Source: Escherichia coli (lineage in GTDB: Bacteria > Pseudomonadota > Gammaproteobacteria > Enterobacterales > Enterobacteriaceae). From it: a stretch of 64,000 nucleotides of DNA. The position numbers are program-made. The first letter of the stretch is position 1; every line of letters begins with the position of its first letter. The stretch lies in NCBI RefSeq assembly GCF_045037415.1, contig NZ_CP173438.1. The stretch is one strand, 5' to 3'. Below are positions 39,001 through 45,000 of the stretch, one piece after another.

Positions 39001-42000
39001 AACACCGCCTGTAGACCTGATAAGATGCGCCAGCATCGCATCAGGCATGGTGTGCCGATTGCCGGATGCGGCGTGAACGCCTTATCCGGCCTACCGTTCC
39101 GACACCGACTGTAGGCCTGATAAGACGCGCCAGCATCGCATCAGGCATGGTGTGCCGATTGCCGGATGCGGCGTGAACGCCTTATCCGGCCTACCGTTCC
39201 GACACCGCCTGTAGACCTGATAAGACGCGCCAGCATCGCATCAGGCTAGATGTGCCAATTGCCTGGTGCCCATCACTACAGCGAAATACAAGTCCCCGCT
39301 TCGCCCGCCAGCGTCTCTTCAATCCGCGATAACGCCCCAATCCACGCGGGTTTACCACGGCTTCTGACATAGCCACTCACCGCCGTTACCTTCGGCCCCA
39401 TCGAACCATCGGCTTTGGCAAATGGCGCTAACTCATCCGGTGTGGCATGGCGAATGGCACGTTGCTGCGGCGTTCCCCAGTTTTCATATACCGCATCAGC
39501 ATCGGTGAGGATCACCAGTCCATCGGCATTAATCTGCTCGGCGAGCAACGCAGCGGCGAGATCTTTATCAATCACCGCTTCACTCCCTGCCCCGTCTTCC
39601 GTCACAGGCACACCACCGCCGCCACTGCAAATCACCACATGCCCCTCTTTGAGCAACAACTCGATGGCTTCGCTGTCGAGAATTTTACGCGGTTGCGGAG
39701 ACGCCACCACCCGACGTAAATATTTACCATCACGTTTCATCTGCCAGCCGTAAGCCGCTTCCAGTGCCTCTTGTTCTTCTGGCTGATAAACCGGACCGAT
39801 AAACTTCTCTGGCTGTAAAAACGCCGGATCATCAGGCGAAACCTCAATGCGCGTCAGCACCGTCGTGACAGGCGGCATCTGCGGCTGTGCGCTCAAGCTC
39901 TGCGCCAGCATATAGCCAATCATCCCCTGGCTTTCCGCCACCAGTACATCCAGCGGATACGGTTCTACCTCTTTCCACGCCAGATTCTGTAACGCCAGCA
40001 GCCCCACCTGCGGTCCGTTGCCGTGAACAATTGCCAGCCGATAAGAACGGGCCAGGCGCGCCAGCGCGGGTACAGCACTGGCAATATTGCGATATTGATT
40101 TTTTGCCGTCAGCGCCTCACCGCGCTGGAGTAAGGCGTTGCCCCCAAGAGCCACAACCAGTGTTTTCATGGTTTCCCTTGTAATAATTGTTGGCCAAGCC
40201 AGAACCCCAGCAGCGTATCTGCCCCTGACGTATGCCCCAGCGCCAGCAGCGAATCGATCGCCGCTGCGGTACGTTTCGGGCAACTCAGCGCATGAACAAA
40301 GTGCAGGAGTGGCGAGGCGAAATATCCTTGCGCGGCATAACGTAAATAACTGACGCTCACCGCAGTGGTAACGAGTTGAAGATTGTCGGAACAGGCAAAA
40401 AACGGGCGACCGGAGCGCGCATCTAAAGCGCCATAATACCAGGCCGCCAGCAGCATTCCGCTCAGCGTGTCATCATGACTTGGCGTTAATCCGGGGCCTT
40501 TACCCAGCCAGTGCCGCCAGTCGGTCTTAACGCCATTGAGCGCGGCCTGAAAACAGTGACGAAACTGGCGTAATTCAGCAGGCAGCGGATCGCTTGCCGC
40601 CAATGCCAGTGGCCCGAAAAGCCCGGTTTCCTCCGCGCGTTGCATCCATGCAACGGCAAGCGGTTGAGGATGCGCAGGCGGCGTAATACGTAGCAAACAA
40701 TAACGCTGTGGCTGTTTAACCGTGAAACGCCCGAGACGAATACCTTGTGCCACAACCTGTGGTCGTTCATTGCCGCATAATCCACCGCATAACGCATCGA
40801 ATTGCGCGCGGCGAAGCACCCATCCGCCGGGGCCGAAACCACTCCCCTGACGATGCAGCGTTAACAGTTCGCCGCTTTCCGTCATCAGGTTAATCGCCCG
40901 CCGCCACACTCCCGCTAACCGCCAGGACTGGCGATAATTCGGTGCGCTACGGCTGGCAAGCAGAGGATGGATGATCGTCATTGTGCGTTCCTCAACCAAT
41001 CCCCATGCTTTCAGCCAGTGCTTCCAGCGCCTGTTCAAAGCACGCCAGCGGTGCCCGCACGGTGCCTGCGCCAATCTGCCCGATCCCCGCCTCTTTATGG
41101 GCGATACCGGTATTGATGAGTGGCGTAATGCCGGTTTCTACCACGCGACGAATGTCCAGCCCCAGGCACGCCCCCTGGAAATCCCAGCCGGGGATCTGCA
41201 ACTGCATATTGCGTTCAAGGTAAATTTCCGCCATCTCTTCAGATACCGCTCTGGCCGCTTCCATGCCACCCGCACCGACAAAGCGCGTTACGCCAGGCGC
41301 TGCGATCATTGCCGCACCTCCGATACCAAAGGTTTCGGTAATCGCGCTATCGCCCATATCCGGGTTCGCCTGCTCCTGCGAGAAGCCGGTGAAAAACAGA
41401 CCTTGCGGAGTGTTTACAGGCGCAGTAAACCAGCGTTCACCCAGCCCGCTTACCCGAATCCCGAACATATTGCCGTTGCGGGTCATAGCCGTAACGATGC
41501 TGCCTGCGCGGATCATCGCGCCTGCATCCATCGCCGCCTTGCAGTAGGCCATCGCGAGGTTGAGGAAGAACTGATCGGTCACGCTGAGAAAATCCATCAC
41601 TTCCGCAATGTGCTGTTTATCATGATCGAGGCGAGCAATTTGTGGGGCCAGCGTACGCATTAACAGTGCTGAGGAAGCAATATTGCGTTGATGGAACTCA
41701 TCGCCCATGGTAATGCCCTGCGCCATCATTGCCGTGAGATCGATACCGCGCTCCATGCGCCCCAGCGCCGCGCTTAATACTGGCATTAACACATCGCGCA
41801 TCCAGCGATGGCGAGTCAGGACATCTTCGCCGTAAGCGCCAAAACGCATCACTTTGCCGATACCTTCGTTGAGGTTGCAGTACGCCCGGTTGCCGTCGGT
41901 CACGTTCTCGACCACCAGCATCGGCATACTGGCAGAAGTAATGCCGCCCATTGGCCCGACGGCATTCACATGGTGACAAGGAATGAAGTTCACTTCCCCC

Positions 42001-45000
42001 TGCTCCAGTATTGCCAGCGCCTGCGCTTCATCTTTCGCCCAGCCTTCGAACAGACATGCGCCCACGCACGCCCCTTTCATGGGTCCGGTCATCTCCTGCC
42101 AGCGCATTGGCGGCCCGGCGTGAAGCAGTGTTTTGCCCTTGTTTAGTTCGCTGATAAGTGAAGAAGCCGGTTGCACATCCAGCCAGTGTGGACGAGCACG
42201 ACGAATTTGTTCGATAACCGCAGCATTGGCTTGCGCCACTGATGTAAACATGGGAACCCCTTATTGCAAACGTTCTAATAAACGAGCCAGTTTTTTATTG
42301 CCGCCGGCGACTGGCGACCATTGGTAATGCACAACCGGTTTGCTGGCGCTTTGTAGCTCCAGCGCAAAGCTGCGTAATCCGATGTTAATCACGGCGACGT
42401 TTTCCAGTAATGACGGTGTGTGTTGCTGTGTGGCAGGCGAGAGCGGATGAATTAACGCCGCAGCCAGCAAGGTGGCTTCCGGTAGCGAACTCACTACCGC
42501 GATCCCCGCATCTTCCAGCGTGGCGATTTGCTGCGAGCGGCATTGCGGGTCACGTTCAGTGCCTGTCACCGTGGCAATGGCATACAGTGGTTGATTGTCT
42601 GAACGCGCGGCACAGGCTTTTTGCCAGGCGCTCACCAGCGAGGCGGCAGGATCGGCGGTCGCGCCGAAGCCAATCACGACATCAAGCAGCAACACTCGCA
42701 CTTGCGGTTTAGCGCCGAGATCGGCAATTAACAGGTTGCGTAAGGTCGGGTCGATCATCGGATGGGGACGCCCGACGGTGTAAAAATCATCGCCCAGGTC
42801 GAGGATCTGATGTCCGTCGGCGTCCAGCATCATGCCATGTTGATGGGTATCGTCGGCTTCCACGCCAAGGTGTCCGGCAAGTAATCCCGCCGCTTCAGCA
42901 GCCAGCGTACCGCCGGTATACAAACCGCAAATAAATCCGCTGCTGACAGGCGCTATCGCGTTACGTCGCGCAGTGACGCGTGAAAGCAGACAAGCCAGAC
43001 GAGCGGCCTCATCCAGCGAGGAGGCAAACCAGACATTCTCGTCGCGGGCCACCGCCGGGGTATAACCTAAAAACAGCGCCACCGTCGGTTTGCCAGTTGC
43101 TTTCATGGCATTAACAATTTTCAGACGCACAGTTTCGGCAGGTGGTTTTGAAACAAATGCCAGCACTTCGCTTTTCTCGTCTGCACTGAGCATTTCCAGC
43201 GCCGTTAGCGCACTGATGCCGCCCACTTCACGGCTGAGATCGCGCCCGCCAAGACCAATCGCGTGAGTAATTCCCTCCCCTGCCAGCGCAATCTGTGAGC
43301 ACAGCTCCTGAATCCCGGTACCGGAAGCGCCTATGACGCCAATGTTGCCTTCCGGCATCACATTAGCAAAAGCCAGCGGCGTGGCAGCAATCATCGACGT
43401 ACCGCAGTCTGGCCCCATCACCAGCAAGCCTTTTTCCCGCGCGCGGGTTTTAAGTTGGATTTCATCTTCCAGCGTGACGTTATCGGAGAACATCATCACG
43501 TTGAGGTTGCGATCCAGCGCCTGGTTCGCCAACTCCGCCGCATACTCACCAGCCACTGAAATCAGCGCCAGATTGGCATCGGGTAATTTCTGACTGGCAC
43601 TGTCCCAGCGACGCACCTGCGTCAACGCCTGGCTGCTGCCTGAACCCTGCGCCAGTTGTTTTAGCGCCTTTTCAAGCTGCTGCATAACCGCCTGCGCGAT
43701 CCCCGCATCCGCCGCTTCGCTACGAATTGCCACGCAAATATCGTTCGGCGTGGCGTTATTAAAATCGTCATGCCAGAAACCTGTAGTATCTAATAACGCT
43801 TTATTGGCGGGCGTACCCATCATTACGGAAACATCATCAACATTTTCTGATTCGCTGAGTTTTCGTGAAATAATCATTAAACTGACCGAATCCTGAAAAC
43901 ACCCTTTTTTAATAAAGGCGTGGATCATAACAACTCCTTAAAAATTGCACCCATGGCAATTGCACGAGCAGTGTTAATGTGGCGATTACGGTATCGATGA
44001 CAACGAGTAAATAAGGTGATGAATATCACACGGGGATTATTAACAAAAGAATTCAAATAACCGCCAGACTATTACGCGTTATTTTTTAATAAGCATGGTT
44101 GTTTTAAAAACCAGGTTAAAAGCACGAAGATTATCAAATAAATTCTAACTATATTTTTTTGCCTGTCTGGATCACATAATCCAGATATTTTCCCTGTATG
44201 TTAATTGCAGTCATGCTTCACACCGTCGTTAAAAAGGAAGACAGATGAAAATCAGTCGGGAAACACTCCACCAGCTAATCGAGAATAAACTCTGCCAGGC
44301 TGGGTTAAAACGTGAGCACGCTGCAACCGTGGCTGAAGTATTGGTTTACGCCGATGCCAGAGGGATCCACTCTCATGGCGCGGTGCGCGTTGAATACTAC
44401 GCCGAACGCATTTCAAAAGGCGGCACCAACCGCGAACCGGAGTTTCGTCTTGAGGAAACCGGACCGTGCTCGGCAATTTTACATGCCGACAATGCCGCCG
44501 GACAGGTCGCGGCGAAAATGGGTATGGAACATGCCATCAAAACCGCCCAGCAAAAAGGCGTTGCGGTGGTCGGTATCAGCCGGATGGGTCACAGCGGCGC
44601 AATCTCTTATTTTGTGCAGCAGGCTGCCCGCGCCGGATTGATTGGCATTTCGCTGTGCCAGTCCGATCCAATGGTGGTGCCGTTTGGCGGCGCGGAAATT
44701 TACTACGGCACTAACCCACTGGCCTTTGCCGCGCCGGGAGAAGGCGACGAGATCCTTACCTTTGATATGGCGACTACCGTACAGGCATGGGGAAAAGTAC
44801 TCGACGCCCGCTCGCGCAATATGTCTATCCCGGATACCTGGGCAGTCGATAAAAACGGTGCACCAACAACCGATCCGTTCGCGGTACATGCTCTGCTCCC
44901 CGCCGCTGGGCCAAAAGGGTATGGCCTGATGATGATGATTGACGTCCTCTCAGGCGTCTTACTCGGCTTACCGTTCGGGCGACAGGTTAGTTCGATGTAT

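Follow-up and report, generated by a model that had tools for sequence, protein, structure and literature searches.

The region described here is the fdrA-ylbE-ylbF-ybcF gene cluster of an Escherichia coli strain, which occupies positions 39276-43928 (4,653 nt) of a 64,000-nucleotide (nt) stretch of contig NZ_CP173438.1; this whole 64-kb stretch is referred to below as the window, and all coordinates are positions within it. We conclude, with little room for doubt, that the cluster is the known allFGHK operon; it encodes the two enzymes that complete the anaerobic degradation of allantoin, and both had already been assigned experimentally in K-12 between 2022 and 2024. We also observed that an intact ylbE gene is the norm for the species, current K-12 MG1655 included, and is no mark of this strain.

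As had been claimed in a first-pass annotation of the window, which did not mention the strand, all four open reading frames (ORFs) in this interval can be read without interruption, and all four lie on the minus strand. The oxamic transcarbamylase subunit genes are fdrA (allF) at 42261-43928 (1668 nt, 555 amino acids [aa], ATG start and TAA stop), ylbE (allG) at 40992-42251 (1260 nt, 419 aa, ATG and TGA; formerly a DUF1116 protein) and ylbF (allH) at 40166-40981 (816 nt, 271 aa, annotated ATG and TGA; formerly DUF2877), and the catabolic carbamate kinase gene is ybcF (allK) at 39276-40169 (894 nt, 297 aa, ATG and TAG). The longest possible ylbF reading frame begins at a TTG at position 41074 and would overlap ylbE; the annotated ATG has the sequence GAGGAA upstream. 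A Shine-Dalgarno-like motif is located before each of the 4 starts (AAGGAG, AAGGGG, GAGGAA and AAGGGA in the order fdrA, ylbE, ylbF, ybcF). Adjacent genes are separated by 9 nt (fdrA-ylbE), 10 nt (ylbE-ylbF) and -4 nt (ylbF-ybcF), and the last of these values corresponds to the sequence ATGA at 40166-40169 on the minus strand, in which the ylbF stop (TGA) and ybcF start (ATG) overlap; this junction, also noted in the first-pass annotation, could be read directly. Four-base overlaps of this type are frequent in operons. A consensus scan for internal promoters and terminators, which would argue against a single operon, found 3 promoter-like and 4 terminator-like sequences, as compared with 3.2 and 6.1 expected by chance. 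The spacing, together with the lack of internal signals above chance, is consistent with co-transcription of the 4 genes in the window. Also, the tight arrangement of the junctions (9 nt, 10 nt and the 4-nt ATGA) would fit coupled translation of the subunits, and from the overlap and the short spacers we infer that such coupling probably occurs.

The protein families to which the 4 products were assigned agree with this identification. FdrA matched both the CoA_binding (PF02629) and the Ligase_CoA (PF00549) models of Pfam, scored 1036.9 bits over residues 1-555 against the NCBIfam model NF004760, for which the cut-off is 433, and matched the PDB entry 3dmy, "Protein fdrA", with E=2.8e-302. YlbE, which contains no internal stop, scored 326.7 bits (cut-off 27) against PF06545, "Oxamate carbamoyltransferase subunit AllG", and is a homologue of the solved structure 3clq (E=4.9e-111). 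For YlbF, the match was to PF11392, "subunit AllH" (102.9 bits, cut-off 25), and the PDB search found no homologue with a solved structure. YbcF matched PF00696 (AA_kinase) and exceeded the cut-offs of both the NCBIfam equivalog NF006926 (619.6 bits versus 416) and the arcC model TIGR00746 (425.8 versus 358.25); its PDB matches were carbamate kinases, including 8crv (E=3.2e-89) and 1e19, over an E range of 3e-89 to 4e-37. Neither of the domains typical of ornithine and aspartate transcarbamylases (OTCase and ATCase), the carbamoyl-phosphate-binding and the Asp/Orn-binding domain, was detected in any of the 4 proteins by a Pfam scan at E<=0.001.

Experimental evidence on function comes from published work with the K-12 orthologues. 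K-12 MG1655 mutants lacking fdrA, ylbE and ylbF, singly and together, were constructed by Kim & Kim (Appl Environ Microbiol 2024; PMC11326118), who renamed the genes allF, allG and allH. The wild type formed 17.7 mM oxamate from allantoin, as compared with 0 for the ΔallF, ΔallG and triple mutants and 1.2 mM for ΔallH; flux was diverted to oxalate, and wild-type oxamate levels were regained only when allFGH were supplied together on a plasmid (PMC11326118). The purified 6xHis-AllF-AllG-AllH protein converted oxamate and carbamoyl phosphate to oxalurate with Mg2+ alone, requiring neither CoA nor a nucleotide; the Km for carbamoyl phosphate was 1.3 mM, that for oxamate was 36.9 mM, and the Vmax was 15-27 U/mg (PMC11326118). 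An earlier study by the same authors had demonstrated that purified K-12 YbcF is a carbamate kinase (with a Km for carbamoyl phosphate of 0.47 mM and for ADP of 0.43 mM), renamed its gene allK, and placed the 4 genes on one transcript by reverse transcription-polymerase chain reaction (PMC9843812, 2022). Thus, the pathway position proposed in the first-pass annotation, with oxalurate going to oxamate plus carbamoyl phosphate ahead of an ATP-yielding carbamate kinase step, is the one published for K-12 (PMC11326118, PMC9843812). Its accompanying suggestion, that the oxamate carbamoyltransferase activity was still to be assigned, has been overtaken, since deletions, complementation, assay of purified FdrA/YlbE/YlbF and kinetics have all been published with the MG1655 genes. 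Oxamic transcarbamylase was long an orphan enzyme; work of 2022-2024 on genes of K-12 MG1655 settled the matter, and the window offers little of discovery value in this respect.

Several observations weigh against a simple transfer of these results to the window. Complementation by single genes was incomplete, and allG on a plasmid failed to restore oxamate to the allG deletion strain; also, AllFGH activity was measured in the reverse direction only (PMC11326118). The FdrA of the window is 10 substitutions away from the K-12 protein that was assayed, and the counterpart of the promoter fragment bound by the activator AllS (see below) differs at 10 of its 60 positions, so that regulation could differ quantitatively. 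No feature of the sequence speaks against the allFGHK identity, and we infer that the alleles of the window do the same job as their K-12 orthologues. By this scheme, AllF, AllG and AllH together would constitute oxamate carbamoyltransferase (EC 2.1.3.5), also called oxamic transcarbamylase; this enzyme would convert oxalurate and phosphate to oxamate and carbamoyl phosphate; AllK would then move the phosphate of carbamoyl phosphate to ADP, yielding ATP and carbamate, and the carbamate would go to NH3 and CO2. A single mRNA for the 4 genes would arise from the AT-rich intergenic stretch separating allD from allF, with AllS and ArcA activating in anaerobiosis with allantoin. In the allantoin regulon of E. 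coli, allFGHK is the final transcription unit.

A different function for the largest of the 4 proteins is implied by database nomenclature. The annotation of the EC958 chromosome designates fdrA as "acyl-CoA synthetase FdrA", ylbE and ylbF as DUF1116 and DUF2877 domain-containing proteins, respectively, and ybcF as carbamate kinase; the first three of these RefSeq names trail the experimental assignment, and Pfam already carries the names AllG and AllH. Taken literally, the RefSeq product name would make FdrA an acyl-CoA synthetase of the nucleoside diphosphate (NDP)-forming type (an oxamate or oxalate:CoA ligase, for instance), with YlbE and YlbF as unrelated accessories and with carbamoyl transfer carried out by another enzyme such as YgeW. 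The CoA_binding and Ligase_CoA domains are in keeping with such an activity, as are the matches of succinyl-CoA synthetase (SCS) alpha chains to FdrA in phmmer searches (E ~1e-12), yet against curated models of the succinate-CoA ligase alpha chain FdrA scored only 53.6 bits where the cut-off is 336, and 48.1 bits where it is 353. Moreover, the alignment of FdrA to SCS-alpha (residues 78-290) ends just before the expected position of the phosphohistidine loop, and a regular-expression search of FdrA found no phosphohistidine-type motif of the form GH[AS]G or HAGA. The published assay of purified AllF-AllG-AllH worked with Mg2+ only, in the absence of CoA or nucleotide, and all 3 genes were required in vivo (PMC11326118); according to work cited in that paper, YgeW is inactive with oxamate-related compounds. 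On the basis of the cut-offs, the missing GHAGA-type motif and the CoA- and nucleotide-free assay, we rejected FdrA as a true acyl-CoA synthetase and regard this alternative as extremely improbable. The RefSeq name is probably misleading, given the CoA-free assay.

The first-pass annotation described ylbE as frameshifted in K-12 MG1655 and, on that basis, proposed that the present strain would be a better background than K-12 for studies of the pathway. We observed that ylbE of the current MG1655 reference, NC_000913.3 (b4572, YP_009029994.1), is annotated as intact, with 1260 nt and 419 aa, and aligns to the window without an insertion or deletion (indel). The frameshift is limited to legacy records. 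In the W3110 record NC_007779.1, ylbE has 1259 nt and is still flagged "frameshifted"; relative to version 3 of the MG1655 sequence, this allele carries the single-nucleotide change G114A and is one G short in the GGGGG run that spans ylbE nucleotides 252-256, such that the frame ends near codon 87. The corresponding run in the window (41996-42000, minus strand; codons 84-86) has all five G residues. We searched 5,426 complete E. coli genomes for the legacy allele, using a 181-nt probe that contained both of its differences and accepting matches of at least 99%, and found it in 4 of 5,417 matching records, namely W3110 and 3 laboratory derivatives, CIT, LIM and CAR. The allele lies at 547680 in W3110 and at 547680 or 547681 in the derivatives; this agreement of coordinates suggests that the 3 assemblies were guided by an old reference.

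The notion that K-12 has no functional ylbE, which would make this strain distinctly better for assigning the oxamate carbamoyltransferase, draws on the W3110 annotation and on literature in which the older MG1655 reference genotype is written "ylbE", as opposed to "ylbE+" for other stocks (PMC4759930). The same literature records ENZ535, MG1655 ATCC 47076 and NCM3722 as ylbE+ (PMC4759930, PMC3045373), the last of these being stated to carry the "intact ancestral gene" (PMC3045373), and we observed an intact ylbE in resequenced MG1655 stocks and in C600, DH5alpha, J53, JM83 and ER1709. Furthermore, the enzyme was assigned in MG1655 itself, in which the wild type makes oxamate and deletion of allG abolishes it. 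Thus, this explanation, which was very unlikely by our assessment, is largely refuted already, and the claim of a superior background falls with it: the K-12 "ylbE pseudogene" is a property of legacy reference sequences, and provides no argument that K-12 lacks the pathway. The first-pass annotation had made its view dependent on the K-12 ylbE not being both intact and identical to the gene in the window; the K-12 gene proved to be intact, and it is not identical, as the 2 differ by 3 substitutions (E38K, A200T and S355G).

We extended the comparison with current MG1655 to the entire cluster (genes b0518, b4572, b0520 and b0521), estimating the ratio of nonsynonymous to synonymous substitution rates (dN/dS) by the method of Nei and Gojobori. 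For fdrA, there were 49 nt and 10 aa differences (98.2% aa identity; dN/dS 0.084); for ylbE, 23 nt differences in addition to the 3 replacements given above (416 of 419 residues identical; dN/dS 0.044); for ylbF, 25 nt and 3 aa differences (268 of 271 identical; dN/dS 0.042); and for ybcF, 27 nt and 3 aa differences (294 of 297 identical; dN/dS 0.038). In the aggregate, the 4 genes exhibit 124 nt and 19 aa substitutions and no indels, corresponding to 97-98% nt identity and 98.2-99.3% aa identity. The dN/dS values of 0.04-0.08 indicate strong purifying selection on all 4 genes, and with such values throughout, we rejected relaxed selection or decay in any of them.

Among the complete genomes, at least 80% of the operon region was present in 5,407 of 5,426. 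The region is 100% identical to that of EC958 and of many other ST131 (O25b:H4) chromosomes, and the window belongs to an E. coli chromosome of the ST131 type. With the region near-universal and the legacy ylbE frameshift confined to 4 records, an intact operon specific to this strain was rejected, and so was a strain-specific ATGA overlap, because K-12 has the identical 4-nt overlap (ylbF ends at 550442 and ybcF starts at 550439). Separately, we observed that 3 genomes of the collection have no operon region at all and that 16 more matching genomes hold less than 80% of it; also, 2 of the 5,426 places that match the fdrA-ybcF region sit on records labelled as plasmids.

The intergenic region between the divergent allD and allF genes, where the promoter of the operon would be located, extends from 43929 to 44244 (316 nt, minus strand); its length is the same in K-12, from which it differs by 14 substitutions. 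Its G+C content is 0.354, as compared with 0.567 for the operon. A consensus promoter scan of this region gave nothing above chance. In K-12, an allF'-'lacZ fusion driven by this region was induced ~38-fold by allantoin in anaerobiosis, and this induction needed AllS and ArcA (Kim & Kim 2025; PMC12535856); in electrophoretic mobility shift assays (EMSA), AllS bound the -203/-144 fragment and phosphorylated ArcA the -142/-83 fragment of the K-12 promoter allFp (PMC12535856). Placed relative to the allF ATG at 43928, the counterparts of these fragments in the window correspond to 44072-44131 for AllS, with 10 of 60 positions different, and to 44011-44070 for phosphorylated ArcA, with 4 of 60 different (both on the minus strand). 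Within the AllS-fragment counterpart, 5 of the 6 consecutive positions at 44126-44131 (-200 to -195 relative to allF) differ from K-12, a cluster whose density greatly exceeds the divergence of ~3% in the genes on either side and that may represent a small patch of recombination or indel realignment.

Downstream of the operon, an array of repetitive extragenic palindromic sequences/bacterial interspersed mosaic elements (REP/BIME) is located between the ybcF and purK stop codons, at 38757-39263 (no strand assigned), and was resolved by Tandem Repeats Finder as a 100-nt unit in 5.1 copies with 96% matches. The ybcF-purK spacer is 533 nt in the window and 194 nt in K-12, the greater length being due to the presence of 5.1 units as opposed to about two REP/BIME units. 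A consensus scan found no canonical intrinsic terminator after ybcF, only the REP/BIME array, which might serve as the 3' end of the operon or as a stabiliser. Possibly, the substitutions in the B2/ST131 control region or the five-unit array alter the strength or the conditions of expression of the oxamate branch relative to K-12. We consider such an effect unlikely; if real, the change in expression could affect how much nitrogen and ATP the products of purine degradation provide in the anaerobic gut or the urinary tract.

The neighbours of the operon are allD, divergent and upstream, and purK, convergent and downstream, with the same synteny in EC958 and MG1655. The window also contains allS, allA, allR, gcl, hyi, glxR, allW, allB, ybbY, glxK, allE, allC and allD, which are further genes of the allantoin regulon. 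Over its full length, the window is collinear and essentially identical with EC958, save for one difference of insertion sequence (IS) size near hokE. At that site (~6142-7583, minus strand), we observed an IS3-family (IS150-like) element with ORFs of 173 and 283 aa that adjoins hokE; EC958 has ~0.5 kb with a second hokE copy there, and this is the sole structural difference in the 64 kb. Tandem or direct repeats were sought between 5000 and 8500 as a cause of the difference, and none were found, the IS150-like insertion accounting for it instead. Elsewhere in the window, the 535-nt lpxH-purE spacer contains a hydrophobic 109-aa ORF (36744-37073, plus strand) that corresponds to the EC958 hypothetical protein WP_001188440.1 and had no significant Pfam match (the best, DUF2746, had E=0.07 and was below cut-off); the K-12 spacer is 117 nt and does not have this ORF. 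At ~60400-62400, three tandem paralogues of the DUF2931 family (89-93% mutual nt identity) follow a gene to which the EC958 annotation gives the name tssD, for a type VI secretion tube protein.

The closest known counterpart of the operon is MG1655 allFGHK, which has the same gene order, strand relationship and neighbours, the same gene lengths (1668, 1260, 816 and 894 nt), identical spacers of 9 and 10 nt, the same ATGA junction, and a promoter region of the same 316 nt; the differences are allelic only, consisting of the coding substitutions, the 14 substitutions in the promoter region and the longer downstream REP/BIME array of the window. The legacy K-12 pseudogene allele, as found in the W3110 record and, according to PMC4759930 and PMC3045373, the older MG1655 reference, represents the same gene at the same locus, and differs by G114A and the missing G; this allele is absent from the window, from current MG1655 and from 5,413 of the 5,417 records. 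With the SCS-alpha/NDP-forming acyl-CoA synthetase superfamily, FdrA shares the CoA_binding and Ligase_CoA domains and an alignment over residues 78-290, but it falls below the family cut-offs, has no GHAGA-type motif, possesses an extra C-terminal Ligase_CoA domain and differs in demonstrated activity. The classical transcarbamylases (ATCase PyrB/PyrI, OTCase ArgF/ArgI, and YgeW) resemble AllFGH in reaction type, in which a carbamoyl group moves to or from carbamoyl phosphate, yet have no sequence relationship with AllFGH, which requires 3 different subunits. YbcF, in turn, shares with ArcC of the arginine-deiminase pathway the conversion of carbamoyl phosphate and ADP to ATP and carbamate; unlike ArcC, it belongs to the allantoin regulon and is fed by the cleavage of oxalurate rather than by the phosphorolysis of citrulline.

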